A program made the position numbers and the translations under genes. The notes under the pieces were generated by a model. That model ran no database searches. It saw only the letters and a program-made list of their open reading frames with translations, and was not told the origin of the DNA. Shown in pieces: positions 7,475 to 57,431 of a DNA stretch of 64,000 nt. Origin of the DNA: Candidatus Eiseniibacteriota bacterium (lineage in GTDB: Bacteria; Eisenbacteria; RBG-16-71-46; CAZAMP01); the NCBI GenBank assembly GCA_965224245.1, contig OZ245046.1, forward strand, positions 544,001 to 608,000, written 5' to 3'. Each line of letters starts with the position of its first letter. Position 1 is the stretch's first letter.

Positions 7475-7623
7475 ATCATTGTAGGATAATAATCAAGACG
7501 GATCAGTGTCTTTTCCGGCTCGGATCCTGTTCGGTCCTCGCGATTTCGGCGTTGGTGCGGGCGCAACGAGCCGCCGTCCCGATCACGGCGTCGCCCAGAC
7601 CATACGAAAAAGCGAGGCATGGC

Positions 7624-11706: not shown

Positions 11707-11804
11707 GAGCGAAGCCGACGCGCACTTTCCTGTGAGCGTCAGATCGTCGATACTTGCGGAGCGGGTGGGTAGTTCGGCTCGCCTGCTCCGTGAGGAGTAC
11801 GACG

Positions 11805-15609: not shown

Positions 15610-15729
15610 GCGACCGATCCCACCGGCACCGAGACGTTCCCTCTCCCCTCGCGCCCCCCAAGCGCCCATCGTGCCCGGTTGTGCTAGTCTGTCGCCGCAG
15701 GCTGATGGGGAAGGTGTGAGGAGGACACG

Positions 15730-16668: not shown

Positions 16669-16692
16669 GTCGCCTCCCCGTCGGCGGTCCTT

Positions 16693-17976
16693 TCACCTGA
16701 TCAGCGCGACCTTCTCGTCGACGTGCCCGGATGCGGTCGACACGCGAACCGTGTACACACCCGCGGACAGACGTCGCCCGCCCGCGTCGCGCCCGTCCCA
16801 CACCTGCGTCGAGGTGCCCTCGCCGACGACGCCACGGTCCAGCGTGGCGACGCGGCGGCCGCGCGCGTCATAGACGGCGAAGTCGACGATCGTGCCGGGC
16901 TCCAGGTCGGCGACGTCCAGCTCGAACCGGATCGGTGCGCCGGCCCGCGCCGGGTTCGGCGATGCGTGGAGCGCGAGGGGGGTGCCCGGGCCGACCATGC
17001 CGTCGGCGACGTCGACCACCAGGGGCTGAGGTGCGTGATACGGCGTCGCCGAGCCGCCGGTCTTGATCAGCCAACCGTCGTGAACGTGGATGTCGATCAC
17101 GGGCTGGGCGAACCACGGAAGATCGGCGGTGTAGTCGTCCCAGGTCACGTAATCGGACGTGAAGAAGATCGAGCCCGCGCCGCCGCCGTTGCTCGACGCA
17201 CCGGCGACGAGCCGGCCGTCGTCGGCGATCTCCATCGCGGTGAGGTTGTAGGTGGTCGGGACGGTCGTGATCTCGGTCCAGGTGGCACCGTAGTCGGACG
17301 AACGCCACAGCGACCCGATACCGGCTCCATGGTAGACGTCGACCAGGAGCTCGCCCTCGCGGTACACGTGCGAGGAGATCTGCGTGGCGCCGGTGGGCGT
17401 GGTGGTGCTGGTCCAGCTCGCACCGAGATCGGTCGAGCGGTGAATGTCCGAGCCCGAGATCGCGCAGAGGGCGCTGCCGGCGGTGAAGATGTCCCACGTG
17501 GCATCGCCACCCGGGAGCGCCACCTCGACCCACGTGAGGCCGGCATCGTCGGATCGACGGAGCACGCCGTCGGCGGTTCCGAAGAGCGTGTCGCCGATCA
17601 CCAGGAGCATCGACAAGGTGGCGTCCTGAAACACGATCGGCTCCCAGGGGCCCCAGACGGCGCCGTCACGCAGGGACCGGAAGTTGAGATCCTCGAACGA
17701 CGCGCGGCCCATCACGAACACGTCGCCGACGCGCGCGAGCGACTGGACGGGGGCGTAGTCGTCCGAGAACACGCTGGCGATCGCCGCCCAGCTGTCGCCG
17801 TGGTCGTCGGAGGCGTAGACCGTGCCGGAGATCGAGCCGGCGTACAGCGCCTCGGATCCCGCGTAGAACATCTGGATGTGGTCGAACGAGCCGGGCTGTG
17901 ACACCTCCGTCCACTGGGCCGACGCAACCGACGTCACGATGGCGGCGGGAATCAACGACGCAAGAACGGCACGCAT
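16693..17976 (-). CDS. Secreted BNR/Asp-box propeller protein with FlgD/T9SS-like tail
   Basis: MRAVLASLIPAAIVTSVASAQ signal with GGAGG RBS; SDDHGDSW, SDDAGLTW, STDLGASW, SSDYGATW; tail YDARGRRV..WDGRDAGG..AGVY. Confidence 0.8.
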   Translation of the reverse strand: MRAVLASLIPAAIVTSVASAQWTEVSQPGSFDHIQMFYAGSEALYAGSISGTVYASDDHGDSWAAIASVFSDDYAPVQSLARVGDVFVMGRASFEDLNFRSLRDGAVWGPWEPIVFQDATLSMLLVIGDTLFGTADGVLRRSDDAGLTWVEVALPGGDATWDIFTAGSALCAISGSDIHRSTDLGASWTSTTTPTGATQISSHVYREGELLVDVYHGAGIGSLWRSSDYGATWTEITTVPTTYNLTAMEIADDGRLVAGASSNGGGAGSIFFTSDYVTWDDYTADLPWFAQPVIDIHVHDGWLIKTGGSATPYHAPQPLVVDVADGMVGPGTPLALHASPNPARAGAPIRFELDVADLEPGTIVDFAVYDARGRRVATLDRGVVGEGTSTQVWDGRDAGGRRLSAGVYTVRVSTASGHVDEKVALIR

Positions 17977-18139
17977 GCAATCCTCCGTTTCGGATGGGGA
18001 CCTCGACGCCCGGTCGACCGCCCGCACCAGTCTAGCGGATTCGCCACACGGGCCGGGCCGTGAACCGATCGGCACGCGTCGCGTGGTGGGCCTCCTCTGC
18101 CTGGACGCGTCGGAGGTCCGGTTTGATACCGGCGCGCCT

Positions 18140-23274: not shown

Positions 23275-23480
23275 GGAGCTCTCCTGGTATCGTCCGCGGA
23301 CGGACGTGATCGACGGGGCGGGCATCGAGCGCGGCCCGGGTCCGTGTTCGGGACTGTCGTGAGAGCCGCCTCGCCACATACTGTGCGGGAACGGTACGAT
23401 GTCGGTATTGTATCGTATCCGCGGCCGGGACTGCCAGGTATGGGGTCCTCGCGAGCTCGCGCGCACCCGATGGAGGATGG

Positions 23481-26063
23481 ATGCAGGCATCATCACGATC
23501 GACATCGCATTGGTTCGAGTGCTCGGAGCTCCGCCACCTACCGACCCGCCGCGCGCGGAATCCGATCGTGGGTGTGCTGGCGATCACGATCCTCGCCGCG
23601 TCGGGCTGCGGGACTCCGGACGACCGGACCCCGACCCCGACCGTGACCGACGACGCGCACAGGCCGCACTTCACGGACGTCACGCGAGCCGCCGGGATCG
23701 ACCACACGCACTCGAAGCCGCGCCTCGATCCGAAGCTCGACAACATCATGCCGTGGGTCTCCAGCGTGGGAGCCGCCGCGGCGGCCGGCGACGTCGACGG
23801 TGACGGATGGATCGATCTCTACGTGACCACGTCTCGCAAGGGCGCCCAGAACCTCCTCTATCGGAACCAGGGCGACGGAACGTTCACGAACGTGGCGAGC
23901 ACGGCCGGCGTCGCCGACGTGAACGACGACGACGGGGTCAGCATCGACTGCATCTTCGGAGACGTCGACGACGACGGATGGACCGATCTCTACCTGGTCC
24001 GGTGGGGTCGCGACCGTCTGTTCCTGAACGACGGAGACGGCACGTTCACCGAGGTCACGCGCGAGCGCTTCACCCGGCGCGACGGCATGCCGGGCACGGA
24101 CTGGGCGAACGGGTGCGGTGCGGTCTTCCTCGACTACGATCGGGACGGCCGTCTGGACATCTACGTCGCGAACTACTTCCGCGACGTCGATCTGTGGGAT
24201 CTGACGTCGACTCGAATCATGCACGACGACTTCGAGCACTCTCGAAACGGGGGAGAGAACTTTCTCTACCACCAGGAGCCCGACGGCACGTTCCGGGAGG
24301 TCGCCTCGTCGCTGGGGATGGAGGATCCCGGCTGGACGCTCGCCGTCGGGTCCGCGGACGTCGACAACGACGGGTGGCTGGACGTCTACTGTGCGAACGA
24401 CTTCGGGCCCGACCAGCTCTTCCTCAACCAGGCGGACGGCACGTTCTCGAACGTGTCGGACGTCGCGCTCGAGTACGATACGAAGAAGGGCATGAACGTC
24501 GACTTCGGAGACGTCAACAACGACGGATGGCTCGACATCTACGTCACGAACATCACCACGGCCGAGTACCTCCGCGAGGGGAACATGCTCTGGCACAACA
24601 ACGGCCCGTCGGACGAGGCGCGCGTCGACTTCGTCGACATCGCCACCGTCTCCGACACGTACGACGGGGGCTGGGGCTGGGGCGCAAAGTTCTTCGACGC
24701 CGACAACGACGGGAGCCTCGACCTCGTGGCCGGAAACGGCTTCATCAGCGCCGGGGAAGGCGAGTACTGGTTCGAGCTGGCCTCCTGGACGGTCATCGCC
24801 GAGGATCCGGCCGACGCCGCCAACTGGCCCGCCATCGGAGAGCGCTCCTTCTCGGGGTTCGAGCCCATTCGATTCTGGCTCAATCGAGAAGGAACCTTCG
24901 TGGAGTCGGCAGCGGCCTCGGGGCTCACGACCCGACGCGACGAACGGGGCGTGGTCACGATCGACTACGACAACGACGGGGATCTGGATCTCTATCTCGC
25001 GAATCAGGGGCAGCCTCCCTGCCTGTACCGCAACGACACACCTGCCCGCCACCACTGGCTCACCGTGGCCCTCGAGGGACGGAGTGACGCGATCGGCGCG
25101 CGTGTGACCGTCGTGACGCCGGACGCCACACGCATCCGGGAGCGCGACGGAGGGAACGGCTACTCCGGTCAGAGCGATCCCCGCATTCACGTCGGGCTGG
25201 GCGAGAACGAGTTGGTCGAGCTCGTGGAGGTCCGCTGGTCGGACGGTGGGCTGCAGTACCTCGAGAATCTGCCGGTGGATCAGATCGTCACCGTCGAGCA
25301 GGATCGGGCGCGCTACGTGGCCAGCGTCCCGCGCGTCGCGGCGATGCCCGAGCGCATCGTGCTCGACACCGCCGAGTCGGAGACGCCGGCGATCGATCCC
25401 GCCGAGCTGGACGAGCTCTTGACGGAGCTCGAGACCGCCATCCGCTCGGGGGACACGACGCTCCGGACCACGAGCCTCTATCGAAACCGCTGCATCACGT
25501 ACGGCGTACACGAGCGTTCGGTGCGCTTCTTCGAGGCGCTCGTGAACGAGCACCCCGACCAGAGCCGCCATCGAGTGAACCTCGCGCTGGCCTACGTGGA
25601 CAAGATCCCGACCTGCGGTGGGGTGGCCGCGGTCGTCAGCAAGGGTACGCTGGCTCGAAAGTCGCTCGACGAGGTGACGCGTGTGATCGATCATGACGGC
25701 GGCACGTGGCTGACACACTACATCCGGGGCATGAACCATCTGCACTGGCCGCGCGCGCTCCGCCACTCCGACGATGCGGCCGCCGAGTTCGAACGCTGCC
25801 TCGAGATCCAGAGCGCGGCGTCGGATCCCCGCGATTACTTCGTACGTACGCATGTAGCACTGGGCGACGCTTATGCCAAGGATGGCCACGCCGATCGCGC
25901 GCGCGCCGTCTGGAGGGCGGCCCTCGAGCACTACCCGGACGCCGAGGCGATCTCGACGCGACTCGGGATCACCGACGACGACGCGCTGCTCGATTTCGTC
26001 GAGGACGCGCGGAGCATCGACCGTCCGATCGATACGGACATGTCGTTCGTCGAGCGGTACTGA
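23481..26063 (+). CDS. CRTAC1/ASPIC-UnbV (enediyne E4-like) FG-GAP repeat protein with C-terminal TPR domain, probable lipoprotein
   Basis: Multiple D-x-D-x-D-G-W-x-D-L-Y repeats, GWGWGAKFFDADNDG, UnbV domain AIGARVTV..GGNGYSGQSD.RIHVGLG..VRW; lipobox-like ILAASGC; helical TPR tail. Exact start uncertain. Confidence 0.85.
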   Translation: MQASSRSTSHWFECSELRHLPTRRARNPIVGVLAITILAASGCGTPDDRTPTPTVTDDAHRPHFTDVTRAAGIDHTHSKPRLDPKLDNIMPWVSSVGAAAAAGDVDGDGWIDLYVTTSRKGAQNLLYRNQGDGTFTNVASTAGVADVNDDDGVSIDCIFGDVDDDGWTDLYLVRWGRDRLFLNDGDGTFTEVTRERFTRRDGMPGTDWANGCGAVFLDYDRDGRLDIYVANYFRDVDLWDLTSTRIMHDDFEHSRNGGENFLYHQEPDGTFREVASSLGMEDPGWTLAVGSADVDNDGWLDVYCANDFGPDQLFLNQADGTFSNVSDVALEYDTKKGMNVDFGDVNNDGWLDIYVTNITTAEYLREGNMLWHNNGPSDEARVDFVDIATVSDTYDGGWGWGAKFFDADNDGSLDLVAGNGFISAGEGEYWFELASWTVIAEDPADAANWPAIGERSFSGFEPIRFWLNREGTFVESAAASGLTTRRDERGVVTIDYDNDGDLDLYLANQGQPPCLYRNDTPARHHWLTVALEGRSDAIGARVTVVTPDATRIRERDGGNGYSGQSDPRIHVGLGENELVELVEVRWSDGGLQYLENLPVDQIVTVEQDRARYVASVPRVAAMPERIVLDTAESETPAIDPAELDELLTELETAIRSGDTTLRTTSLYRNRCITYGVHERSVRFFEALVNEHPDQSRHRVNLALAYVDKIPTCGGVAAVVSKGTLARKSLDEVTRVIDHDGGTWLTHYIRGMNHLHWPRALRHSDDAAAEFERCLEIQSAASDPRDYFVRTHVALGDAYAKDGHADRARAVWRAALEHYPDAEAISTRLGITDDDALLDFVEDARSIDRPIDTDMSFVERY

Positions 26064-26074
26064 CTCCGAGTGCC

Positions 26075-26218
26075 GGGGCGGCAGGCGTGGTGTCTCCTCC
26101 GCTCAAACCTGCCGGCGTGGCCCTCGGGGAAGGTGGGGGTGTCGTTTCGTGCGGGAGCGGTGACGGAGACGTGCTGGTCGCATCCATTCGCTCACCCCGA
26201 CACCACGCCTGCCGCCCC
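26075..26218. repeat. Perfect 20-bp inverted repeat GGGGCGGCAGGCGTGGTGTC (26075-26094 / 26199-26218)
   Basis: Read directly from the sequence; 104-nt spacer; lies between convergent genes. Confidence 0.85.
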
Positions 26219-26219
26219 T

Positions 26220-26360
26220 GTGTCGGGGGATCGACCGGCGCCCGGATGTCGAGGTGTGGGGGATGGTGCGGATCTCCCGGAACTCGGACGCCATCCGATG
26301 TAGAGTGCGCTCCGGCTTGGGCATGACACGGAGGTTGGGGCGGCGGTGTCGGGGGATCGA
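26220..26360. repeat. 15-bp direct repeat GTGTCGGGGGATCGA (26220-26234 and 26346-26360)
   Basis: Read directly from the sequence. Confidence 0.8.
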
Positions 26361-26379
26361 ACGGGGTCGGTCCGAAGAG

Positions 26380-26415
26380 AAATGAAAAGGGGCGATGCCG
26401 GGGTGGCATCGCCCC
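26380..26415 (-). terminator. Rho-independent terminator of the 26438-28003 gene
   Basis: 11-bp stem GGGGCGATGCC/GGCATCGCCCC with a 5-nt loop, followed on the minus strand by TTTTCATTT. Confidence 0.85.
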
Positions 26416-26437
26416 ATCGACACGATGGTCGTGTTCG

Positions 26438-28003
26438 CTACTTCAGCATGACCGCCTGTCGCGTCTCGACGACGTGACCGTCCACGACCAGCTCGTAGAA
26501 GTACGTTCCGGAGGCCAGGAGACGGCCGGATTCGTCGCGACCGTCCCAGTTCACCCGATGCGATCCCGCGCTCACGTGCGCGTCCACGAGCGTGCGCAGG
26601 AGGCGCCCCGTCGCGTCGTAGATGCGGATCTGCGCGGTGCCGGCGTTCTCCAGCACGAAGGGGAGCGCCGTCGAGGGGTGGAACGGGTTCGGCCGAGGCG
26701 CCAGCAGCCGCGTACCGGCGGCGACCCCGGTCTGCGGGCTGGAGAGCGGCGTCACGTCGCCGGTGCCCATGCGGACGGTGCCGACGGTGGACCCGCCCAG
26801 GCCCTCGAGAATGCTGCCCGGTGCACCCTGGAAGTCGATCCGGTAGGCGATGTCGAAGAAGCTGTCGACCTGGAAGTCGCCGCTGGGTAGCTGCGTCAGC
26901 GTCGTGTGTCCCGGGCTCGGGAGACCGAACTCGGTACCGCCGGTGATGCCGAGGAACTCGAAGTCCGGATCTCCGAACAGCTTACCCTGCAGCCGCACCA
27001 TGTCGTTGTCGAACTCCTGGACCGGGTCGCCCGGCGTCCGCGGACCGGTGTGCACCTCGCACTGGATCGGGATGATCATCGTGCGTGCGTAGCCCTCGAG
27101 GTCGCCGGTGCCGTTGAGCGTCATCGTCAGCTGCGACTGGAACTGCTCGATCTCGCCGCCCAGCGTGCCGCCCGGTGTCGCGACCACGTTGAAGAACCGG
27201 TCGTGAATCGGGTCGAACTCGATCGTCGTTCCCGGTGGAAGGCCGTCGATGATCATGTGGACCTGGTCCGGCGACAGGTACTGACAGCCGTCGGGCGGCA
27301 GGCGGACGGTACCCGTCCCGTCGTCGGCGACCACGCACGGGTTGTCGGGAGCCGGCTCGCCGCCCTGCATCCGTACGGTTCCCTCGGTCGGGCCGCCGAA
27401 GCCCTCGAGGATGCTTCCCGGCGCGCCCTGGAACTCGATCCGGTAGGCGATGTCGAAGAAGCTGTCGACGTTGAAGTTGCCGTTGGGGAGCTGCGTGAGC
27501 GTCGTCTGACCGGGGCTCGGGAGGCCGAACGACGAGCCCGCGACGATCTGGATGAAGTCGAAGTCCGGGTCGCCGAAGAGCTGGCCCTGGAGCTGCACCA
27601 TCTCGTTCGGAAACGTCTGCACGGGGTCGCCGGGCGAGCGCGGACCGGTGTGAACCTCGCACGCGATCGGGATCGCCATCGTTCGGGCAAACCCGGCCAG
27701 ATCGCCGGTTCCCGTCATCTGCATGAACAGGAACGACTGGAACTGCTCGACCTCGCCGCCGAGCGACCCGCCCGGGAATCGCACCTCGTTGAAGAACTTC
27801 GCGTGCTCGGCCGCGACGTGGATCTCGGTGCCCGCCGGGAGGTTGCCGATCATGATGTGCAGATCGTCCGGAGAGACGTATCCGCATCCGGGCGGTGGCA
27901 GGTCGACGGTCCCGGTGCCATTGTCGGGTACCTCGCACACGTCCGCTCTCGCGATCGAGCCGACCAGCGCGGCCATACATACGACGCTCCAAAGACGCGA
28001 CAT
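26438..28003 (-). CDS. Secreted protein with two tandem 200-aa repeats (VDSFFDIAYRI motif) and FlgD/T9SS-like tail; function unknown
   Basis: GGAGG RBS; signal MSRLWSVVCMAALVGSIARA; repeats C-x-V-x-D-x-GTGTV-x-LPP-x-GC..EVHTGPR..LFGDPDF..VDSFFDIAYRI at an exact 600-bp offset; tail PNPF..YDATGRLLR..WDGRDESG..SGTYFY. Confidence 0.85.
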   Translation of the reverse strand: MSRLWSVVCMAALVGSIARADVCEVPDNGTGTVDLPPPGCGYVSPDDLHIMIGNLPAGTEIHVAAEHAKFFNEVRFPGGSLGGEVEQFQSFLFMQMTGTGDLAGFARTMAIPIACEVHTGPRSPGDPVQTFPNEMVQLQGQLFGDPDFDFIQIVAGSSFGLPSPGQTTLTQLPNGNFNVDSFFDIAYRIEFQGAPGSILEGFGGPTEGTVRMQGGEPAPDNPCVVADDGTGTVRLPPDGCQYLSPDQVHMIIDGLPPGTTIEFDPIHDRFFNVVATPGGTLGGEIEQFQSQLTMTLNGTGDLEGYARTMIIPIQCEVHTGPRTPGDPVQEFDNDMVRLQGKLFGDPDFEFLGITGGTEFGLPSPGHTTLTQLPSGDFQVDSFFDIAYRIDFQGAPGSILEGLGGSTVGTVRMGTGDVTPLSSPQTGVAAGTRLLAPRPNPFHPSTALPFVLENAGTAQIRIYDATGRLLRTLVDAHVSAGSHRVNWDGRDESGRLLASGTYFYELVVDGHVVETRQAVMLK

Positions 28004-28287
28004 CGTCTAACCTCCTGCCGTCGACACCGCGCCGTTCGTCTCTCGTACGGCGAACGATCTCCGGCCAACGGTTTTGTAGGATGATGCGGGCGCATCACGC
28101 GAACGCGATTCGATCCGGTCCGAATGCCCTCGACCGGCTCGAAGGACGGCCACGATCCGAGGAAGCGGGTGACCCCAAAAAACGGCCATCGGGAAACTCT
28201 CATCGAAATGATACTGTGTTGCCCGGAAACTGGACAAGCACGTGCTGAGGATCTTGCCCCGCGAGGACCGAGATCGATGATCCTGGC

Positions 28288-30978
28288 ATGAAATCGCGCC
28301 ATGCGCCGCCGACGCGTCCACGCCCGCTCCCGTGGGGGTGGAGCCTCTCGCATCCCACGCTTATTCTCCTGTTCGTCGCGGTTGTGACCGCGTTTCTGGG
28401 AGCCGGGCTGGGTCGGCTGCGGCTGCGGACCGATGGACACGCCCTGATTCCGGCCGAGCGGGCCGAGATCGTCGAGGACGCCGAGATCCGTGAGCGGTTC
28501 GGCGTTCGGGATCCCGTGATCGTCCTGGTGCGGTCGTCGAGCCCGGAGGGGATCTACACGGTCCCGGCGCTGGCGGCGCTGGTCGAGCTCTCGGACTCGC
28601 TGTCGGCGCTGGCCGGGCCCGGGTCCGTGATGAGCCTGGCCACCGAGCGCGGCGATCGCTTCGAGCGGGGCACGCTCAGGTATCGCCGCTTTCTGTCACC
28701 ACTGCCGGCATCCGAGGGGGCGATCGACACGCTTCGCTCCGACCTGGCCGCGCTCGCCCTGCCGGTGGGGACGCTCGTCTCCGACGACGGAGCCGGCGCC
28801 GCCATCTACGTGGACGTCGATCCGGGGGCGGAGCGGAGCGCGTTCCTGGCCCGGGTCATGGACCTGGTCGCCCGACACCGCACCGAGGATCTACGGCTCG
28901 ACGTCATCGGGGCTCCGATCGCGGAGAGCCTGCTCGGGCTGCACATCCTCGCCGACCTTGGATTGCCCGGGGCGGCGCGCGCCCACGCCGACGACGTCGA
29001 CCCCGATCGGCCCGCCGCCGGGTGGGAGCGGACACGTGACGTGATCACGCGGCCCGGCCTCGTTCCGATCGCCATCGTCATCATGTTCGTCGTGTTCGTG
29101 GTCGCGTTCCGGAGTGTTCCCGCGGCAGTTCTGCCCTTGATCGAGGTGCTCGCCTGTCTGATCTCGGTGCTCGGGCTCATGGGCTGGATGGGCGTGCCGT
29201 TCTACCTGACGATCGCGCCGATGCCCGTGATCCTGACCATGATGGGGGTCGCGGACGAGGTCCATCTGTTCGCACGTCATGCGCGCCTCCGCACCGAAGA
29301 CCCCAGTGCCGACCCGAGGGAGGTCGTCGACGCCACGATGCGCGACCTCGTGCGACCGGTCGTGTGGACCTCGGTGACGACGGCGATCGGGTTCGCGTCG
29401 TTCGCGCTGTCGCCGATCGCACCGGTGCGTGCGTTCGGGGTGTTCACGGCGCTGGGCGTGATGTATTGCCTGGGATGGTCGCTTCTGGTCACGCCGGCGC
29501 TCCTCGTGCGTCTACCCGCGTCACAGGTGGGAGATCCACGGCTGCCATCGGCGCCGCTCGATCGGCTGGGTCGTCTGGTCACCGGTCACCCGAAGGCGAC
29601 GCTGGGGGTGGCCGGGCTCGTCGTGCTCCTGTCGATACCGGGACTGGTGCGGCTGAAGGTGCAGGACAGCTGGATCTCGGGCTTCTCGGAGCGGAGCCGG
29701 TTTCGATCCGCGACCGAATGGTACGACGCGCACTTCCTCGGGATGCACCGGCTCTTGATCGAGGTCCGGGGCGAGCCCGTCGACGTGGTCGGCGCGATCC
29801 CCGTAGACCGACTCGAGCGGCATCGGCTGACGCTGCCGTCCGGGAGCGTCTCCGATCCCGGGCGGCTGGTCGGCTGCCGGATCGCGCTGTCCCCGGACGG
29901 CTGGCGTCACGACGAACCCGAGCAACGCTGGGAGTCGTGGATCGTGCTCGCCGAGGAGACCGCCGACGGCCTCGTGCTGATGACGCCCCGCCGCGATGGG
30001 TCTGCGCGGATGCGCTTCGGGGATCAGCTCACGGGCGTGGTGAGATACGAGATCCGGTCGCGGACGTTCTCCTGGCACGAGCACCTCCGCCGTGTCGAGG
30101 CGTTCGAGGCGGTCGTGGCATCGCGGCGGGACGACACCGTGGGGGGCGTGATCGGCGCCGCCGCCCACGTTGCCACCGCCGACTACGTGGTGACGCGTCG
30201 CGATTCCACCGCACGCGAGGTTCCTGACGACCCCGATCGCGTGGGCTGGCTGCTAAGCCAGTACGGGCGCGTTCACGGCGAGCGCCGTCTCCGCGCCATC
30301 GTGGATCCCGACCTCGAGCGCGCGCTCGTGACCGTCTTCATGCGCGCCGCGAACTACCGGGCCACCGCGTCGTTGATGCGGGAGACCCGGGCCTACGCGC
30401 GAGAGCATCTCGAGCCCGCCGGGCTGTCGATCCGATTCGCCGGTGACGTCGCGGTGAGCCAGACGCTGATCGAGTCCATCGTCAGCACCCAGCGACGCTC
30501 TCTGGGGCTCTCGCTCGTGGGGATCCTGGTCGTGCTCGTGGGCCTGATGCGATCGCCGGTGCGCGCCGTCATGGGCGTGCTGCCATCGGCGATGGCCGTC
30601 GGCATCGGGCTGGCCATGCTGGGCGCGACCGGGCGCTCGCTCGGGGTGTCCACGTCCATGTTCGCCGGCATGACGCTCGGTGTGGGCGTCGACTTCTCCA
30701 TTCACCTGCTGGCGGCGCATGCGCGGGCGGTCGGGACCCGTGCCGAGCGGATCCGGCTCGCACTGGCCGATGCCGGTCCCGCGATGACGATCGATGCGCT
30801 GGCGGTTGCGCTCGGGTTCGGCGTGCTGTGTGTGTCGGGGGTGCCGGCCAACGTCGCGCTGGGGTCCCTGGCCCTGGTGTGCATTCTGACCTGCCTGGCC
30901 GTCACGCTCGGGGTGGTGCCGGCGCTCCTGTCCCTCGGTGCCGGCGGGAATGGACCGGAGGACGGGTCGAGCGCATAG
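28288..30978 (+). CDS. MMPL/RND-family membrane transporter
   Basis: Two halves, each with 1+5 TM segments and a large extracytoplasmic loop; GVADEVHL and GVGVDFSIHL motifs; TTAIGFASF. Confidence 0.85.
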   Translation: MKSRHAPPTRPRPLPWGWSLSHPTLILLFVAVVTAFLGAGLGRLRLRTDGHALIPAERAEIVEDAEIRERFGVRDPVIVLVRSSSPEGIYTVPALAALVELSDSLSALAGPGSVMSLATERGDRFERGTLRYRRFLSPLPASEGAIDTLRSDLAALALPVGTLVSDDGAGAAIYVDVDPGAERSAFLARVMDLVARHRTEDLRLDVIGAPIAESLLGLHILADLGLPGAARAHADDVDPDRPAAGWERTRDVITRPGLVPIAIVIMFVVFVVAFRSVPAAVLPLIEVLACLISVLGLMGWMGVPFYLTIAPMPVILTMMGVADEVHLFARHARLRTEDPSADPREVVDATMRDLVRPVVWTSVTTAIGFASFALSPIAPVRAFGVFTALGVMYCLGWSLLVTPALLVRLPASQVGDPRLPSAPLDRLGRLVTGHPKATLGVAGLVVLLSIPGLVRLKVQDSWISGFSERSRFRSATEWYDAHFLGMHRLLIEVRGEPVDVVGAIPVDRLERHRLTLPSGSVSDPGRLVGCRIALSPDGWRHDEPEQRWESWIVLAEETADGLVLMTPRRDGSARMRFGDQLTGVVRYEIRSRTFSWHEHLRRVEAFEAVVASRRDDTVGGVIGAAAHVATADYVVTRRDSTAREVPDDPDRVGWLLSQYGRVHGERRLRAIVDPDLERALVTVFMRAANYRATASLMRETRAYAREHLEPAGLSIRFAGDVAVSQTLIESIVSTQRRSLGLSLVGILVVLVGLMRSPVRAVMGVLPSAMAVGIGLAMLGATGRSLGVSTSMFAGMTLGVGVDFSIHLLAAHARAVGTRAERIRLALADAGPAMTIDALAVALGFGVLCVSGVPANVALGSLALVCILTCLAVTLGVVPALLSLGAGGNGPEDGSSA

Positions 30979-31132
30979 GGACCTGGTATCACCGACGCGA
31001 TCGCGTTTATACTGATCTTTCCGTTCGGCGGTCCCTTTTTGGCGGCCCGTCCCGTGCCGGCGGCGTCGGCGCTCGACCCGGGAACCATCACGAACGGTCA
31101 TCTCGCTGGCCCGCGAGGAGCAGGTTTCACAC

Positions 31133-32101
31133 GTGAAGACGCTTCCGACGCTGCGCCGGCGGCTCTTCGGCATCTCCAGCGCCGAAGCCGAGTTCGCGCG
31201 ACGCGGTTTTGAGCCGACCACCGGCGCCAAGCAACGCGTCCTCGAGACCGCCGGCGCGACGTTCATCGAGGGATACAACCGTGCGATCGCGCACGGACGC
31301 GGCACCGGCGTGGCCGACCTTCTCTTCGACGTCGATCCGAGCCGGCTGGGGTTCGCGTTCGAAGGAGCCGCCATGGCGCTCGCACTTCTCGACCGGCTCC
31401 TGCCGTGGCGCGGCACTCGCCTCCAGACCCTGCTCGCCGGAGACGGCGATCCCCACCGGTACATGGTGTTCGTCGGTGCGGGCTGGGCGCTGGCCAGGCT
31501 GCGTCGATCGCCGCGTTCGCTTCTGGGCCTCGATCCCATTCTAGGCTGGCTCGCCGTGGACGGAATGGGATTCCACGACGCGTACTTCCACCCGGATCGG
31601 ACGATCGGCCGGGCCGAGCGGTCGGCGCGCGCGATGGGTGTCGCCGCTCACGTGTTCGACCAGGGTGTCGGACGGGCGATGTGGTTCGTGTGCGGGGCGA
31701 ACGTCACCCGGACGTCGTCGACCGTGTCGGGATTCTCGGCCGAGCGGCACGCCGATCTGTGGAGTGGGGTCGGGCTCGCGGCCACGTACGCCGGTGCGGT
31801 CGATCGTGACGAGCTCCTCGCGTTGCGCGAGGCGTCGGGAGAGCATGCCTCGCATCTCGGTCAGGGATCGGCGTTCGCCGCCAAGGCGCGGATGCGAGCC
31901 GCGAATCCGACGCCGCACGTCGACGCGGCGACCGACGTGCTCTGCGGGCTCTCGTGCGGAGCCGCTGCCGATCTGACCGACGAGGCGCTGTCGGCCACCC
32001 TCGCGATCGTCGATCGATCCGATCGTGAGGACGGCGAGCCCGCATACGAGCGGTGGCGAGCCGGGGTGAGGTCGCGCCTGGAAGCGAGTGCGAGAGTATG
32101 A
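31133..32101 (+). CDS. UnbL/DUF1702 family protein (enediyne E3/E2-like)
   Basis: F.RRGF, GFAFEGAAMAL, H.YM..VGAGWALARL, WLAVDG.GFH.AYF, DQGVGRAMWF, DLWSGVGLAATYAG, PAYERWR; GTG start with GAGGAG RBS; stop overlaps the PKS ATG. Confidence 0.9.
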   Translation: MKTLPTLRRRLFGISSAEAEFARRGFEPTTGAKQRVLETAGATFIEGYNRAIAHGRGTGVADLLFDVDPSRLGFAFEGAAMALALLDRLLPWRGTRLQTLLAGDGDPHRYMVFVGAGWALARLRRSPRSLLGLDPILGWLAVDGMGFHDAYFHPDRTIGRAERSARAMGVAAHVFDQGVGRAMWFVCGANVTRTSSTVSGFSAERHADLWSGVGLAATYAGAVDRDELLALREASGEHASHLGQGSAFAAKARMRAANPTPHVDAATDVLCGLSCGAAADLTDEALSATLAIVDRSDREDGEPAYERWRAGVRSRLEASARV

Positions 32102-35100
32102 GCCGGTCCTCGACGAGACCGCTCCAGCCCCGGGGCTCGACACCGGGCGGGGCGGCCATCGCGGTCGTGGGCATGGCCTGCCGTTACCCGGATGCGGACT
32201 CTCCTCAGGCGCTCTGGGAGAACGTCCTCGCCCAGCGCCAGTCGTTCCGGCGCATGCCGCGCGAGCGCCTGGACCTCGACGACCACTACTCCGACGACCG
32301 CGGGGCGCCCGACCGCACCTACGCCACCATGGCCGCCGTGCTGGAGGGCTATGCGTTCGATCGCGTCGCGCATCGCGTCGCCGGCTCGACCTATCGCTCG
32401 GCCGACCTGGCACACTGGCTCGCCCTGGACGTGGCGACCGATGCGCTCGCGGACGCGGGCCTGCCCGCCGGGGACGGGCTTCCGCGCGATACCACCGGCG
32501 TTCTGATCGGCAACTCCCTGACCGGCGAGTTCTCCCGCGCTGCGACGCTCCGGGTGCGGTGGCCGTACGTGAAGCGCGTGGTCGGCGCGGCACTCGCCGG
32601 CGGCGGCTGGTCGGACGAGGACGTCTCGTCGTTCCTCCGCCGGCTGGAGGTGTCGTACAAGGCTCCGTTCGCCCCCGTCGGGGACGAGACGCTCGCCGGC
32701 GGGCTCTCCAACACGATCGCCGGACGCATCTGCAACGCGTTCGACTTCAAGGGCGGTGGCTACACGGTCGACGGCGCCTGCAGCTCGTCGCTCCTGGCCA
32801 TCGCCAACGCGTGCTCGGCGCTGACGGTGGGCGACCTCGACGCGGCGATCGTGGGGGGCGTGGACCTGAGCCTGGATCCGTTCGAGATCGTCGGGTTCGC
32901 GAAGGTGGGCGCGCTCGCACCGGATCGGATGCGCGTCTACGATGCACGCTCCGCCGGATTCTGGCCGGGCGAGGGATCGGGCATGCTGGTCCTGATGCGG
33001 CTGGCGGACGCGATCGCGACCGGGCGGCGTGTCCTGGGCATCATCCGTGGCTGGGGCATCTCGTCCGACGGCACCGGCGGCATCACCCGGCCCGAGGTGG
33101 CCGGGCAGCGCCTGGCCATCGCGCGCGCCTACGCCCGTGCGGGCTACGGAATCGACACGCTCGGCTACGTCGAGGGGCACGGAACCGGAACCACGGTCGG
33201 CGACGCCACCGAGATCGACGTCCTCGGCGGCGCGCTGCGAGAGGCGGGGGCAGGGCGTCGCGTGGCCCTCGGCTCGATCAAGGCCAACATCGGGCACACG
33301 AAGGCGGCCGCCGGCGCCGCGGGCTTCCTGCGCGCGCTCCTGGCCGTGGGACACGGCATCGTGCCGCCGCACGCCGGCACACGTACGCCCCATCCGTCGC
33401 TCGAGGCCGGCGACGCGCCGCTCCGTCTTCCGAGAGAGCCGGAGGGTTGGGACGCCGCCTCGCGCCGCGCCGGCGTCAGCTCGATGGGCTTCGGCGGCAT
33501 CAACGTGCACATCACGCTGGAGGCAGACGGAAGCGACGCTCCGCGCGGGCGTCGCCTCGCGCCGCGTACCGCGCGACTCGCACGCACGCCGCAGGACGTC
33601 GAGCTGTTCGGGATCACCGCCCCGACCCGGGAGGCGCTCGGACGTCGGCTCGAGTCGCTGCGCTCGCAGTGCGAGACGCTCGCATTCTCCGAGCTACCCG
33701 ACCTTGCGGCCACGCTGGCGCGGGAAGCCGCACGGGGGCCGCACCGCGTCGCGTTGATCGCCGACTCGCCGGCCGAGCTCGCCCGCCGCATCGACGACTC
33801 GCTGGCACGGCTCTCGATGGACGGCCCGGTGGTGGACGGATCGGGTGGGCTCTTCATCGGGTCCGGACCCGCACCGCGCATCGGCTTTCTCTTTCCGGGA
33901 CAGGGCTCGCCGTCCCGGCCCGACGGCGGCTCGGTGCGCCGGCGCTTCGAGCGCGCGGCGGCCCTCTACGAGCGCGTGGGCAGAGACGGGCTGTTCCCCG
34001 CCGTCGAGGATCCCACCGACACCGCCCTGGCACAGCCGGCCATCCTCGCGGCGACGCTGGTCACGCTCGAGGTGCTGGATGCGGTCGGGGTGCGGGCACG
34101 CGCCGCGCTCGGGCACAGCCTGGGCGAGATCGCGGCGCTGGCGTGGGGGGGCGCGCTGTCGCACGAGGGTGCGCTCCGACTGTCGGCGGCGCGCGGGCGC
34201 GCAATGGCGAGCGTGCCCGGACCCGCCGGCGCGATGGCGTCGATCGCCGCGTCTCCGGAGGACGTCGCCGCGTGGCTCGCGGAGCTCGATCTCGCGGCCG
34301 GCGCCACCGGCGACGCCACGGCACCCGGAGCGGTGCCGGATCGGGGAGGCGCCGTAGGTCACGGGGTCGTCATTGCCGGCTACAATGGTCCCGCGCGAAC
34401 CGTCGTGTCCGGTCCGAGCGAGGCGGTGGACGCGTTCGTCGAGCGGGTGACCGCACGCGGCGCCACCGCCACGCGGCTTCGCGTCTCGCACGCGTTTCAT
34501 TCCGGGCTGATGGCGCCCGCGAGCACCGGCCTCGCGGCGGCCATCGCCGCCGAGTCGTGGCGGCCGTGCTCGCGCGTGGTCGTGTCCACGGTCACCGGCG
34601 ACCGCGTTCCCGAGCGTGCGGACGTCGGCGACCTGCTGCGTCGCCAGCTCACCGAGCCGGTTCGGTTCTCCGATGCCCTTTCCGTGCTCGCGCGCGACGT
34701 GGATCTCCTGATCGAGGTCGGACCCGGGACGTCGCTCGCGACCCTGGCCGCAGCGCAGGTCTCGACACCGGTGGTGGCCACCGACGGATGTGGGGATTCG
34801 CTGCGCGGACTTCTGGGCGCGATCGGTGCGGCGTGGGCGCTCGGGGCATCCGTGGATCTCGAGTCGCTCTTCGGCGACCGCGCCGTGCGGCCGTTCGATG
34901 GGCATCGTCCCCACGCGTTTCTGGCGAACCCGTGTGAGTCCGCGCCCCGACCCGGTGCGCCGGACGGGTCGCCGGTCACGCCTTCCCACGCCGGGACGCT
35001 GCCCGCGCCCGCGATTCCGGCGGCGGCGAGTCCGCCGGGACACACCGGCGGGGGGGGCGCGACGCTCGACGAACGAGTCGATGATGCCCGCGATGAAGGG

Positions 35101-38100
35101 CTGCCGGACGAGAGCGGCACGGGTCCCGCTTCGGCCCTCGACGTGGTGCGCACGCTGGTCGCCACTCGCGCCGAGCTGCCGCTCGAGTCCATCGGCGAGG
35201 ACGATCACGTGCTCGACGACCTCCGGCTCAACTCCATCGTCGTGGGTGAGATCGTCACCAACGCCGCGCGCCGCCTCGGACTCGACGCCCCGACGGCGCC
35301 GGCCGAGTTCGCCGACTCGACCGTCGGCGAGATCGCGGCCGCCCTGGCGGCGCTTCTGGAAGACGGTCCGCGCGGACGCGATCGATCGCTCGGGCTCGCG
35401 CCGGACGACGAGATCCCCGAGGGCGTCTCGACGTGGTTTCGGACCTTCGCCACCGAGTGGGTCGAGGCGCCGGCGCCCGCGAGCGCCCCGCTACCGGACG
35501 TCCGGTGGGAGGTGCTGGGGGACCCGACCGATGGGCTGGTGGCCGAGCTCACCGCGCGTCTCGGAGAGGCCGGCTCCGGCGATGCCGAGGCACCCGGTGG
35601 AACGCTCGTCGTCCTTCCGGCACGGGTGTCCGACGACGACGTCGTCGCCGCCGTGGATGCGGCCGGCGCGCACCTCGGACGCGGAGGAACGCACTTCGTT
35701 CTGGTCCAGCGCGCGGACACGCTGGCGAGCCTCGCCCGGACGCTCCACCTCGAGGACCGGCGGGTCACGACCCGCATCGTCACCGTGCCCGACGGCTCGC
35801 CCCGCTCCGCCCGCGCGATCCTGGCGGAGATCGCCGGAGACGGGCAAATCGTCGAGGCGCGCTACGAGTCCGATGGGCGCCGGGTCGTTCCCGTTCTCGG
35901 GCACGTTCCGATCGGGCGCGATGGAGCGAGCGCCGATGGGTCCGGCACGGTCGAGCCGGCCGCCGGGCTCGGTGCCGACGACGTCCTGCTCGTGACCGGC
36001 GGAGGCAAAGGCATCGCCGCCGAGTGCGCGCTCGCGATCGCCGCCAAGACCCGGACCGCGCTGCTGCTGATCGGACGCTCGGATCCGGCACACGACCCCG
36101 TGCTCGCGGGAAACCTGGCGCGGATCGCCGGCGCCGGGTGTCGCGCACACTACGCGCGCGCCGACGTCACCGACCCGGCGGCGGTCGCGAACGCGGTGGC
36201 CGAGGGAGCCCGCGTGCTCGGCCCGATCACGGGCGTCCTTCACGGGGCGGGGCGAAACGAGCCGTCGCGGATTCGCATGCTCGATCGAGACCGGGTGCTC
36301 GCGACGCTCGCCCCGAAGACGCGGGGCCTCGAGCACGTGCTCGCGTCCGTGGACCCCTCGTCGCTTCGGCTGCTGGTGACGTTCGGATCGATCATCGCCA
36401 CCGCCGGTCTGGCCGGAGAGGCCGACTATGCGATCGCCAACGAGCGCCTGGCGGCGATGACCGCGGCGTTCGGGCACGCCAATCCGACGTGTCGCTGCGT
36501 GTGTCTGGGATGGTCCATCTGGTCGGGAACCGGAATGGGAGAGCGTCTGGGCCGCGTCGAGACGCTCGCGCGTCAGGGGGTCGTTGCGATCACGCCCGAC
36601 GCCGGAGTCGACGTCCTCGGGCGTATCCTGCGAGCACCGGCGCTTCCCACGCACCTCGTGGTGACCGGCCGGTTCGGAGACCCGCCGACCGTTCGAACCG
36701 AGCCCGGCGAGCTGCCGCTCCGGCGTTTCCTGGAGCGGCCGCGTGTGCACGTCCCCGGCGTCGAGCTCGTCGCCGACGCGACCGTCGATCCCGCGCACGA
36801 TCCGTATCTGGACGACCACGTTCTCGACGGGGTCCGGGTGTTCCCCGCCGTGATGGGCCTCGAGGCGATGGCCCAGGTCGCGATGGCGCTGGCGAGGCGC
36901 GACGACCCGCCGGCCTTCCACGACGTCCGGTTCGATCGTGCCGTGACGATTCCCGAGACGGGTGCGACGTTGCGGATCGCCGCACTCGCGGACGTCGACG
37001 GCGCACACCCGGGCGCGGGTGTGATTCGTGTCGTCGTCAGGTCCTCCGAGACGTCGTACGCCGTCGATCACTTCACCGCACGCTGCCGGTTCACCGACGC
37101 GCCGCCGCCCGACGTGGATCCGATCGCGAACGGACGCCCGGCCCGGTTCGATCTCGGGGATCGTCTGTACCGCGAGATCCTGTTCCAGCGCGGTCGCTTC
37201 GCCCGCGCCGGAGGGTACGACGACGTGCAGGCGCGACGTTGCGTCGGCCGGCTCACGGCCGCGCCGCCGGTCGGCTGGTTCGGTGCGTTTCTGCCCCAGG
37301 CGCTCGTGCTGGGCGATCCCGGCCGTCGCGATGCCATGCTCCACGGGATCCAGGTCAGCGTTCCGCACCGCCGGCTGCTTCCGGTGTCGGCGACCGAGAT
37401 CGTGTTCCGGCCGTGCGGCGGCGCCGCGGAGCCCGGCGCGCCTCGGAGCGCATCGGACGCGGCGGTGTTCCGGGCGGTCGAGACCGCGCACCGGGGGGCC
37501 GACTACACCTACGACGTCGACGCCGGCGAGGAGCGCGGAGTCGTCGTCGAGTGCTGGCGCGGACTCGTCTTCCGGGCCGTGGGCCCGATACCCCTGCCCG
37601 AGACGTGGCCCCGCCCCTTGCTCGGCTCGTATCTCGAGCGGCGGATCGCCGAGACGTGGCCCGACCGCGTCTCGCACGTCGCGGTGGATCGATCCGGGAC
37701 GTCGACCGAGGACATCCTGCGCGCCGCGATCGCGGCGTCGACACACGTGCACCGGCGGCCCGACGGGAAGCCCGTGCTGTCGAACGGGACGCCGGTGGCG
37801 ATCTCGACGCACGGTCCGCTCGCGCTCGCGGTCGTCGCGGCCGATCCGGCACCGGTCGGGTGTGACGTCGAGGCGGTCGTCCCGCGTGACCGAGACGCCT
37901 GGCGGGCGCTCGTCGGGGATCGCGGCTGCGAGGTCGCGGAGCTCGTGTCCATGCGTGTCCCGGAGCCGTTCGACGCGGCGGCGACGCGCGTGTGGTGCAT
38001 CAAGGAGTCCGTGCGCAAGGCGGGGGGAACCTGGAATGAGGTGCTGAGCGTGACGTCGGTCGACGATGCCGCCTGGGTTCGCTTCAGGGCCGGATCGTTC

Positions 38101-38235
38101 CAGGTGGCGACGCTGCGCGTCGTGCTGGAGCCGGACCCGGATCTCGATGCGGGCGGCACAGGGTGCGGCGGTCCGATGATCGTCGCGGTGCTCGTCGAAG
38201 AACGCGGCTCGGAGGCGGCGCGTGAAGGCGTATGA
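32098..38235 (+). CDS. pksE: Enediyne-type iterative type I polyketide synthase (KS-AT-ACP-KR-DH-PPTase)
   Basis: KS (GNSLTGEFSRA, TVDGACSSSL, EGHGTGT, NIGHTKAAAG), AT (GHSLG, HAFH), central ACP (DDLRLNSIVVGEIV), KR (VTGGGKGI, ADYAIANE), DH (YLDDHVLDG..FPAVMGLEAMAQ), PPTase (GCDVE, WCIKESVRKA); ATG at 32098. Confidence 0.95.
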   Translation: MSRSSTRPLQPRGSTPGGAAIAVVGMACRYPDADSPQALWENVLAQRQSFRRMPRERLDLDDHYSDDRGAPDRTYATMAAVLEGYAFDRVAHRVAGSTYRSADLAHWLALDVATDALADAGLPAGDGLPRDTTGVLIGNSLTGEFSRAATLRVRWPYVKRVVGAALAGGGWSDEDVSSFLRRLEVSYKAPFAPVGDETLAGGLSNTIAGRICNAFDFKGGGYTVDGACSSSLLAIANACSALTVGDLDAAIVGGVDLSLDPFEIVGFAKVGALAPDRMRVYDARSAGFWPGEGSGMLVLMRLADAIATGRRVLGIIRGWGISSDGTGGITRPEVAGQRLAIARAYARAGYGIDTLGYVEGHGTGTTVGDATEIDVLGGALREAGAGRRVALGSIKANIGHTKAAAGAAGFLRALLAVGHGIVPPHAGTRTPHPSLEAGDAPLRLPREPEGWDAASRRAGVSSMGFGGINVHITLEADGSDAPRGRRLAPRTARLARTPQDVELFGITAPTREALGRRLESLRSQCETLAFSELPDLAATLAREAARGPHRVALIADSPAELARRIDDSLARLSMDGPVVDGSGGLFIGSGPAPRIGFLFPGQGSPSRPDGGSVRRRFERAAALYERVGRDGLFPAVEDPTDTALAQPAILAATLVTLEVLDAVGVRARAALGHSLGEIAALAWGGALSHEGALRLSAARGRAMASVPGPAGAMASIAASPEDVAAWLAELDLAAGATGDATAPGAVPDRGGAVGHGVVIAGYNGPARTVVSGPSEAVDAFVERVTARGATATRLRVSHAFHSGLMAPASTGLAAAIAAESWRPCSRVVVSTVTGDRVPERADVGDLLRRQLTEPVRFSDALSVLARDVDLLIEVGPGTSLATLAAAQVSTPVVATDGCGDSLRGLLGAIGAAWALGASVDLESLFGDRAVRPFDGHRPHAFLANPCESAPRPGAPDGSPVTPSHAGTLPAPAIPAAASPPGHTGGGGATLDERVDDARDEGLPDESGTGPASALDVVRTLVATRAELPLESIGEDDHVLDDLRLNSIVVGEIVTNAARRLGLDAPTAPAEFADSTVGEIAAALAALLEDGPRGRDRSLGLAPDDEIPEGVSTWFRTFATEWVEAPAPASAPLPDVRWEVLGDPTDGLVAELTARLGEAGSGDAEAPGGTLVVLPARVSDDDVVAAVDAAGAHLGRGGTHFVLVQRADTLASLARTLHLEDRRVTTRIVTVPDGSPRSARAILAEIAGDGQIVEARYESDGRRVVPVLGHVPIGRDGASADGSGTVEPAAGLGADDVLLVTGGGKGIAAECALAIAAKTRTALLLIGRSDPAHDPVLAGNLARIAGAGCRAHYARADVTDPAAVANAVAEGARVLGPITGVLHGAGRNEPSRIRMLDRDRVLATLAPKTRGLEHVLASVDPSSLRLLVTFGSIIATAGLAGEADYAIANERLAAMTAAFGHANPTCRCVCLGWSIWSGTGMGERLGRVETLARQGVVAITPDAGVDVLGRILRAPALPTHLVVTGRFGDPPTVRTEPGELPLRRFLERPRVHVPGVELVADATVDPAHDPYLDDHVLDGVRVFPAVMGLEAMAQVAMALARRDDPPAFHDVRFDRAVTIPETGATLRIAALADVDGAHPGAGVIRVVVRSSETSYAVDHFTARCRFTDAPPPDVDPIANGRPARFDLGDRLYREILFQRGRFARAGGYDDVQARRCVGRLTAAPPVGWFGAFLPQALVLGDPGRRDAMLHGIQVSVPHRRLLPVSATEIVFRPCGGAAEPGAPRSASDAAVFRAVETAHRGADYTYDVDAGEERGVVVECWRGLVFRAVGPIPLPETWPRPLLGSYLERRIAETWPDRVSHVAVDRSGTSTEDILRAAIAASTHVHRRPDGKPVLSNGTPVAISTHGPLALAVVAADPAPVGCDVEAVVPRDRDAWRALVGDRGCEVAELVSMRVPEPFDAAATRVWCIKESVRKAGGTWNEVLSVTSVDDAAWVRFRAGSFQVATLRVVLEPDPDLDAGGTGCGGPMIVAVLVEERGSEAAREGV

Positions 38236-38647
38236 GTACCGGCACCTCGTCGGCTTCGCGGAGACGAACGTCGTGGGGAACGTCTACTTCTCCCACCACG
38301 TCGCCTGGCAGGGGCGCTGTCGCGAGGCGTTCCTCCGCGAGCACTGTCCGTCGTTGCTCGACGAGCTCACGTCGGGGCTCGCGCTGGTCACGCTCAGCTG
38401 CCGTTGCGAGTACGTGTCCGAGGTGCTCGCGCTCGAAGAGGTGATCGTGCGCATGACCCTCGCGGAGTCGTCGCAGAACCGCGTCGCGATGCGGTTCGAC
38501 TACGTGGTCGTGCGGGATGGCACCGAGCGGATCGTGGCCCGCGGCGGGCAGGAGATCGCGTGCATGCGCCGGACCGCCGGCGGCCTCGAGGCCACGAGCG
38601 TTCCCGTCGAGCTGTCCCGGGCGCTGGAGCCGTACCGCTCGCGCTGA
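38222..38647 (+). CDS. Hotdog-fold thioesterase, enediyne E10/E7 type
   Basis: YEYRH.VGF.ETN.VGNVY...WQGRCRE.FL signature; overlaps the PKSE end. Confidence 0.92.
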   Translation: MKAYEYRHLVGFAETNVVGNVYFSHHVAWQGRCREAFLREHCPSLLDELTSGLALVTLSCRCEYVSEVLALEEVIVRMTLAESSQNRVAMRFDYVVVRDGTERIVARGGQEIACMRRTAGGLEATSVPVELSRALEPYRSR

Positions 38648-57420: not shown

Positions 57421-57431
57421 GGATGCACACG

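Follow-up and report, generated by a model that had tools for sequence, protein, structure and literature searches.

In a 64,000-nucleotide stretch of a Candidatus Eiseniibacteriota genome (contig OZ245046.1; hereafter the window), we analysed a six-gene locus that centres on an enediyne-type polyketide synthase (PKSE). Next to the PKSE gene lie genes for an E10-type thioesterase (TE), a DUF1702 protein homologous to E3, an MMPL-family transporter, a secreted repeat protein and a UnbV-domain protein with tetratricopeptide repeats (UnbV-TPR). Excerpts of three papers (PMC5181780, PMC4480864 and PMC9992847) describe E3, E4, E5, the PKSE (E) and E10 as common to all characterized enediyne clusters. 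In the window, E3, the PKSE and the TE are intact, whereas E5 and a canonical E4 are absent. From sequence comparisons, we give an even chance to the view that the locus is a functional but reduced PKSE system, and infer that its product would be an exported C15 polyene or a derivative of one.

We hypothesize that a conjugated polyene would grow on the ACP domain of the PKSE and be released by the TE as a C15 polyene, by analogy the heptaene. E3 would act in the cytoplasm, either on the polyene or with the synthase, and the hydrophobic product would be extracted from the inner membrane by the MMPL pump. The UnbV-TPR protein, a putative lipoprotein, would then bind or modify the product, with the periplasm or the outer membrane as the site, and the repeat protein, which has a tail of the type IX secretion system (T9SS) type, may also take part outside the cytoplasm. 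Since E5 is missing, as are genes for tailoring and resistance, the pathway would most likely end in a linear polyene or a simple derivative used at the cell envelope, rather than in a 9- or 10-membered enediyne.

PKSEs in non-actinobacterial diderms are already published and are not new. The layout described here, which lacks E5, has a different protein in place of E4 and is linked to an exporter, is new; a limited literature search returned no description of an E5-less cassette. In the excerpts of PMC4480864 and PMC9992847, E3–E5 are conserved genes of unknown function, yet they serve as a hallmark of enediyne clusters. What E4 and E5 contribute could be learned from a natural comparison: an intact E3–PKSE–E10 set that lacks both exists alongside a full set, with matching exporter and secreted partner, in a relative of the same class.

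The polyketide synthase, its thioesterase and E3

The initial annotation had proposed a complete PKSE with the domain order KS-AT-ACP-KR-DH-PPTase and intact motifs, and both Pfam and NCBIfam matches and a reading of the motifs bear this out. The frame of 2045 codons is open throughout, and every motif sought is present in its translation: VDGACSSS (Cys228), HGTGT361, GHT399, GHSLG672 and HAFHS798, followed by GGGKGIAA at about 1301, HVLDGVRVFP1574, VGCDVE at about 1921 and WCIKES at about 1966. We take the residues in these motifs to be the catalytic ones. The Pfam match to the PPTase domain is weak (ACPS, 20.8 bits against a cut-off of 25), and NCBIfam AcpT matches residues 1888–2007. Over 98% of its length the protein is 44.2% identical to SgcE, the synthase encoded on the C-1027 plasmid SGLP1 (tblastn against plasmids), the annotated region of which was also the source of the SgcE2–E11 reference proteins; its AT region matches that of DynE8 with an E value of 3.4e-53.

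A KS phylogeny had been suggested as a check on the assignment. In a KS-AT tree of 33 rows, built without CalE8 and without the KS domain of DynE8, the PKSE of the window groups with SgcE (L065) and 29 other PKSEs in a single clade, with support of 100 against two outgroup synthases. Its position within that clade is not settled by this tree. In a tree of the C-terminal region it groups with the PKSE of G021, a genome of the same class but another family, and with those of two Isosphaeraceae (support 87–90). By its domains, motifs and phylogeny, this is a genuine enediyne-type PKSE (KS-AT-ACP-KR-DH with a C-terminal PPTase), a self-phosphopantetheinylating synthase with a single iterative module.

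The TE is 48% identical to SgcE10. Its closest solved structures are six thioesterases, including DynE7, CalE7 and one named 'ACP-polyene thioesterase', with E values from 1.9e-41 to 1.1e-37 (the next is 5.6e-05); on this evidence it is a TE of the enediyne E10 type (DynE7/CalE7/SgcE10). Coupling of the PKSE gene to the DUF1702 and TE genes, also noted at the outset, is seen as overlaps on both sides: an ATGA at 32098–32101 is shared between the stop codon of E3 and the start codon of the PKSE, and the TE starts with a GTG at 38222 inside the end of the PKSE gene, an overlap of 14 nucleotides.

According to excerpts of PMC4480864, PMC9992847 and PMC9682884, a PKSE and its TE together give 1,3,5,7,9,11,13-pentadecaheptaene. 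Of the pairs that make this heptaene in E. coli, SgcE/SgcE10 and DynE8/DynE7, both counterparts are present, intact and coupled in the window. Heptaene formation is the sole biochemically established activity that can be expected of the locus by this analogy. Known producers form the heptaene as an intermediate or shunt product within a larger pathway; in the window, the cytoplasmic part of the pathway may end with it.

Of the minimal cassette, E3 (DUF1702/UnbL) is also present. The protein is 39% identical to SgcE3, and a profile search found DUF1702 as a single copy in the host genome. Its predicted structure is an all-alpha bundle (pLDDT 92, pTM 0.92) for which Foldseek returned no match in the PDB (best E value 0.38); no sequence relatives were found in the PDB. 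The columns that are invariant among 19 aligned E3 homologues include E77, D87, D143 and H148.

Absence of canonical E4 and E5, and comparison with other loci

We searched the host genome for E5 by tblastn with nine E5 proteins from related loci (47–61% identical to the first one in alignment A1). The only match was partial, at 27–31% identity, and lies at 4.43 Mb on contig C1, 3.9 Mb from the locus. Against an E5 profile this gene scores 66.5 bits, compared with 430–502 bits for the E5s of eight other genomes. It encodes an RnfD-family protein and sits among genes for mechanosensitive channels. We rejected it as the missing E5 because two relatives that have no DUF1702 match, G005 and G020, carry orthologues of it (56–59% identity).

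A profile of 15 canonical E4s, the members of which score 925–1145 bits, gave its best match in the host genome to the UnbV-TPR protein of the window, at 268 bits. The genome has about 20 UnbV/ASPIC genes, and the next two scores are 156 and 106 bits. The UnbV/ASPIC gene that had been called 'E4-like', about 6 kb upstream of the PKSE, is therefore present as such but is not a canonical E4. Canonical UnbV (E4) and the RnfD-like UnbU (E5) are missing both from the locus and from the genome; as the genome is 97.4% complete, a missed copy of E5 is unlikely. The locus had been described as compact and rearranged; because E5 and canonical E4 are absent, it is a reduced cassette and not a complete one in another order.

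Maturation, tailoring and self-resistance genes, which surround the cassette in clusters for 9- and 10-membered enediynes, were likewise not found around this one. Queries from the C-1027 cluster, the only ones used, detected no homologue of SgcE7, E8, E9 or E11 anywhere in the host genome and only a weak, generic match to SgcE6, in line with the initial annotation of a minimal system without tailoring genes. Self-resistance genes were found neither with the C-1027 queries nor in the flanks, the apoprotein and other types of resistance lying outside the search. Gene calls in the flanks of the window include no oxygenase, sugar or resistance genes, as had been reported.

Set against the C-1027 cassette of Streptomyces globisporus (sgcE3-sgcE4-sgcE5-sgcE ... 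sgcE10), the window shares the PKSE domain order, E3/DUF1702 and the E10-type TE. It differs in that it has no E5, no canonical E4, a single DUF1702 gene and no genes of the SgcE6–E11 type nearby. Its E3 gene overlaps the PKSE gene directly, instead of tailoring genes there are an MMPL transporter and secreted proteins, and the host is a diderm.

We considered whether an enediyne-like or polyyne core might still be made, with UnbV-TPR standing in for E4 and the function of E5 either dispensable or supplied by another membrane protein, for instance the MMPL pump or the distant RnfD-like gene. The intact E3, PKSE and TE are compatible with this, as is the fact that UnbV-TPR belongs to the clade sister to E4 and resembles E4 more than any other protein of the genome does, and two loci described below have divergent versions of E4 and E5 that travel with a PKSE. 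However, there is no E5 of either kind, the only RnfD-like gene is a lineage gene found in relatives without a DUF1702 match, and tailoring and self-resistance homologues are missing within the scope given above. All five cassette genes are kept in all characterized enediyne clusters, as far as the excerpt of PMC5181780 describes them. We consider an enediyne-like or polyyne product improbable.

How unusual the reduced layout is can be judged from other PKSE loci. A scan of species genomes gave 49 loci, 41 of which (L010–L050) contain relatives of the PKSE with 37–49% identity, mostly from Cyanobacteriota, Verrucomicrobiota, Planctomycetota, Acidobacteriota and Chloroflexota. The weight that had been placed on the host being non-actinobacterial is not supported, since most PKSE relatives that we found are non-actinobacterial, and an excerpt of PMC10308959 already reports that most metagenomic enediyne-type KS domains come from non-actinobacterial phyla, in which no such compound is known. 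The cassettes of these phyla belong to the same PKSE clade as that of the window, have no known product and in several cases include MMPL-family genes. Nevertheless, of the 29 loci that could be assessed (PKSE N terminus and at least 4.4 kb of upstream sequence present), 26 keep a canonical E5, usually in the order E3-E4-E5-PKSE-TE, whereas the window has none. The exceptions are L028, L041 and L042, and the genome of L042 has an E5 elsewhere. The locus in the window also suggests that enediynes may not be the products of many loci outside Actinobacteria that have been called 'enediyne' on their KS or PKSE sequence alone.

In G021 a divergent MMPL gene (39% identity) and a repeat-protein gene (57–62%) stand, in that order, ahead of the full set E3-E4-E5-PKSE-TE, in which the PKSE is 46% identical to that of the window. 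The verrucomicrobial locus L028 has instead the order repeat protein-E3-PKSE-TE; its genome (G041) has no match to the E5 profile anywhere and carries a UnbV-TPR with 59% identity to that of the window on a separate contig of 4.4 kb. Judged by these genes, L028 and its genome are an apparent second, independent case of the layout of the window.

The cassettes of L041 (6747–17910; Ktedonobacteraceae, Chloroflexota) and L094 (2306–13517) are complete but reordered, as E3-PKSE-E10-UnbV-TPR-divergent E5. Like the window, they have E3 directly before the PKSE, a UnbV protein with TPRs and no canonical E4 or E5. They differ in keeping a divergent RnfD-like E5, which is 70% identical between the two copies and about 30% identical to canonical E5, in having UnbV-TPR 3' of the TE, and in having PKSEs that form a clade (support 100) separate from that of the window. 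Because this form keeps a divergent E5, replacement of both E4 and E5 by UnbV-TPR is not valid for every variant. A different arrangement, with two E4–E5 pairs beside one PKSE, was seen in Herpetosiphon aurantiacus and in a Deferrimicrobium metagenome-assembled genome (MAG) (L031, 2313–5171 and 7556–9992; L039, 4–5102).

UnbV-TPR, the transporter and the repeat protein

In a FastTree phylogeny of 114 UnbV proteins, the canonical E4s form a clade of 27 rows (support 100), and the protein of the window falls outside it. Canonical E4s and all UnbV-TPRs lie on one side of a split with support of 95, with generic paralogues, including five from the host genome, on the opposite side. By this placement UnbV-TPR is not E4 but a member of the sister clade of E4. 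It is by a wide margin the best E4 relative of the host genome and the only member of the sister clade there, its gene being 6 kb away from that of the PKSE. With a lipobox-like N terminus (LAASGC), it reads like a lipoprotein. A crude scan showed an N-terminal hydrophobic anchor in 12 of 15 canonical E4s, and the anchor of SgcE4 is visible by eye; such anchors fit an extracytoplasmic role for the E4 family as a whole.

Linkage of UnbV-TPR to PKSEs recurs. Among 80 loci kept from a metagenome scan, six (L075, L090, L092, L093, L094 and L102) have a PKSE and TE in the same locus, and an MMPL-family gene adjoins UnbV-TPR in four. A relative also lies beside a PKSE–TE pair in L041, the order of which (E3-PKSE-TE-UnbV-TPR) is repeated in L094; in L075 a MacB/HlyD exporter lies between UnbV-TPR and the PKSE. 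We tried and rejected a single lineage for the linked PKSEs, which occupy at least three separate positions in the C-terminal tree: L041, L093 and L094 form one group (support 100), L075 sits with Limisphaerales (98), and the PKSE of the window joins those of G021 and the two Isosphaeraceae. The association must therefore have arisen more than once. When 34 genomes were scored, a UnbV-TPR with at least 49% identity was present in all three that lack a canonical E5 (the host of the window, G041 and G042), compared with 2 of the 31 that have one. On balance, the gene comparisons incline us to the view that UnbV-TPR belongs to the PKSE system.

Among the UnbV/CRTAC1-type matches in other genomes, several contain a single in-frame TGA or TAG (G005:C1:1586494–1588161, G065:C82:1942–3639, and others in G048, G061 and G043); these could be selenocysteine codons, pseudogenes or sequencing errors.

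The transporter matches Pfam MMPL at 72.8 bits (cut-off 20.5) in two stretches, and NCBIfam HAE3 at 152.6, below its cut-off of 351.9. A crude hydropathy scan showed 11 hydrophobic segments in two groups, the layout of the family being 12 transmembrane segments in two lobes. Its other matches in the host genome are partial in length, at 21–34% identity. Full-length homologues with 37–39% identity adjoin the PKSE loci of G021, L011, L038 and L050, which upholds the proposal that an exporter is a conserved partner of the PKSE and makes the MMPL protein the probable exporter of its product.

The secreted repeat protein has a signal peptide, two tandem units of about 195 amino acids (69% identical to each other) and a FlgD_ig/T9SS-type tail. 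The tail scores 24.9 against TIGR04183 (cut-off 23) and resembles FlgD and the C terminus of PorU. The predicted structure is all-beta (pLDDT 85.7); in a Foldseek search of the PDB, the C-terminal FlgD-like tail alone found a match, and the ESM Atlas gave no usable match for the repeat domain. Homologues lie directly 5' of E3 in G021 (57–62% identity) and in L028 (54–59%). The repeat unit, in the region of residues 21–415 or so, has three cysteines and conserved GDPDFD, GLPSPG and VDSFFD motifs, and no Pfam model covers it; elsewhere the domain often occurs in 3–7 copies, in proteins of up to 2980 amino acids.

Neither UnbV-TPR nor the repeat protein is part of the co-directional block MMPL-E3-PKSE-TE, and that block could be the whole functional unit, the other two being separate surface proteins of a secretion-rich region. 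Each of the two has a transcription unit of its own, and a terminator-like hairpin separates them; the window is rich in secreted proteins with FlgD_ig tails, and a paralogue of the repeat protein is encoded elsewhere. We nevertheless think it improbable that the unit is confined to these four genes: the repeat-protein homologues directly 5' of E3 in G021 and L028 are, at 54–62% identity, more similar to that of the window than are the PKSEs themselves (46–47%), and UnbV-TPR is linked to a PKSE–TE pair in seven other loci.

Several observations weigh against a functional, reduced system in which UnbV-TPR takes part. Its PKSE has the longest terminal branch of the C-terminal tree (1.01; median 0.38), which could mean relaxed constraint on the sequence. 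The UnbV-TPR family is very large and mostly unlinked to PKSEs; within the subclade of the window (19 rows), only the window and L075 are linked to one, and seven loci whose sequence extends for 5 kb or more on either side show no hit to PKSE, E3, TE or MMPL. G065 and G071 carry a canonical E5 as well as close UnbV-TPR genes, and L041 and L094 keep their divergent E5 right after UnbV-TPR, whereas the window and G041 do not. The genome counts given above are small and include the discovery case, and many of the genomes compared are incomplete and mutually related MAGs. Finally, the paralogue of the repeat protein (58% identity) lies among unrelated secreted proteins, and the repeat domain belongs to a large family (599 cluster representatives at E<=1e-30).

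Some of these points would also be expected of a decaying remnant, in which a cassette like that of G021 lost E4 and E5 by deletion, the original product is not made any more, and UnbV-TPR and the repeat protein are unrelated neighbours. The PKSE of G021, whose set is full, is among the closest in the C-terminal tree, the PKSE branch is long, most of the UnbV-TPR subclade is not beside a PKSE, and the genome has about 20 UnbV/ASPIC genes. Decay is at odds, however, with an open frame of full length that retains all its motifs and the start/stop overlaps on both sides, and with the recurrence of both the reduced layout and the 59%-identical UnbV-TPR in an unrelated verrucomicrobial genome. The chance that the sole member of the E4 sister clade falls 6 kb from the PKSE is roughly 0.3% (an estimate, 2 x 10 kb / 6.9 Mb). 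We regard a remnant as unlikely.

A broader form of the functional, reduced system is more tentative, and we hold it to be possible but doubtful. The locus may represent a distinct and repeatedly evolved branch of diderm PKSEs in which E4 and E5 are replaced by a TPR-fused lipoprotein of the E4 sister clade and an MMPL-type exporter, and in which the polyene is completed or put to use beyond the cytoplasm, as a molecule of the envelope or surface. If so, the window and the verrucomicrobial genome of L028 would be two independent cases of the swap, and the steps of E4 and E5 in the making of true enediynes would take place outside the cytoplasm, in association with the membrane.

Locus layout and genomic setting

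The six genes of the initial annotation were all recovered, with the same coordinates and order, from the listing of open reading frames and the Pfam and NCBIfam matches (Table 1).

Table 1. Features of the PKSE locus, in window coordinates
Feature	Position	Strand	Properties
UnbV-TPR	23481..26063	+	860 aa; Pfam FG-GAP_3 x5, UnbV_ASPIC (E 4.6e-21), C-terminal TPR
Terminator-like hairpin	26389..26415	-	11-bp stem followed by a T run; just 3' of the repeat-protein gene
Secreted repeat protein	26438..28003	-	521 aa; Pfam recognizes only the C-terminal FlgD_ig / T9SS-type tail
MMPL/RND-type inner-membrane transporter	28288..30978	+	896 aa; Pfam MMPL, Patched and sterol-sensing domains
DUF1702 (E3/UnbL homologue)	31133..32101	+	Pfam E 2.4e-103; profile positions 3-318 of 319
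PKSE, iterative type I PKS	32098..38235	+	2045 aa; KS, AT, PP-binding, KR, DH, ACPS (Pfam)
E10-type hot-dog thioesterase	38222..38647	+	141 aa; Pfam 4HBT_2

A hairpin scan of the region gave four terminator-like sites against 3.1 expected, which is the level of chance. The genome, of 6.9 Mb, is of the diderm type, as had been supposed: both LpxC (288 bits) and Omp85 (164 bits) were found. Among 40 relatives, only G021 has a DUF1702 match, so the PKSE system is patchy within the class. Comparison with G001, a genome of the same family, gave no island boundary, as the flanking DNA maps onto scattered contigs. Matches to the 2-oxoglutarate dehydrogenase E1 gene of the genome, at 62–70%, gave no resolution at the level of phylum, the few that carry names belonging to several phyla.

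In a scan of the window, the flanks were found to encode secreted FlgD_ig proteins, an ECF-type sigma factor, a STAND kinase, phosphate transporters, a GH97 protein and an aldehyde dehydrogenase. From 7552 to 23505 there is a series of large secreted proteins with FlgD_ig/T9SS-type tails, including a C25 peptidase-like protein (7552–11706), a BNR/sortilin-like protein (16693–18075) and a choice-of-anchor B protein (20509–23505). The series is broken by the ECF-type sigma factor (11754–12386) and a protein that combines Ser/Thr kinase, STAND and TPR regions (12376–15609). Farther downstream, an open reading frame of 1022 amino acids (57344–60412, + strand) has a Pfam match, to PALP, at residues 640–867 only. 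Outside the window, the host genome has a second locus with KS- and AT-like sequences (G000:C1:2047429–2050609), which is about 30% identical to SgcE and could be fatty-acid synthesis genes or another PKS.

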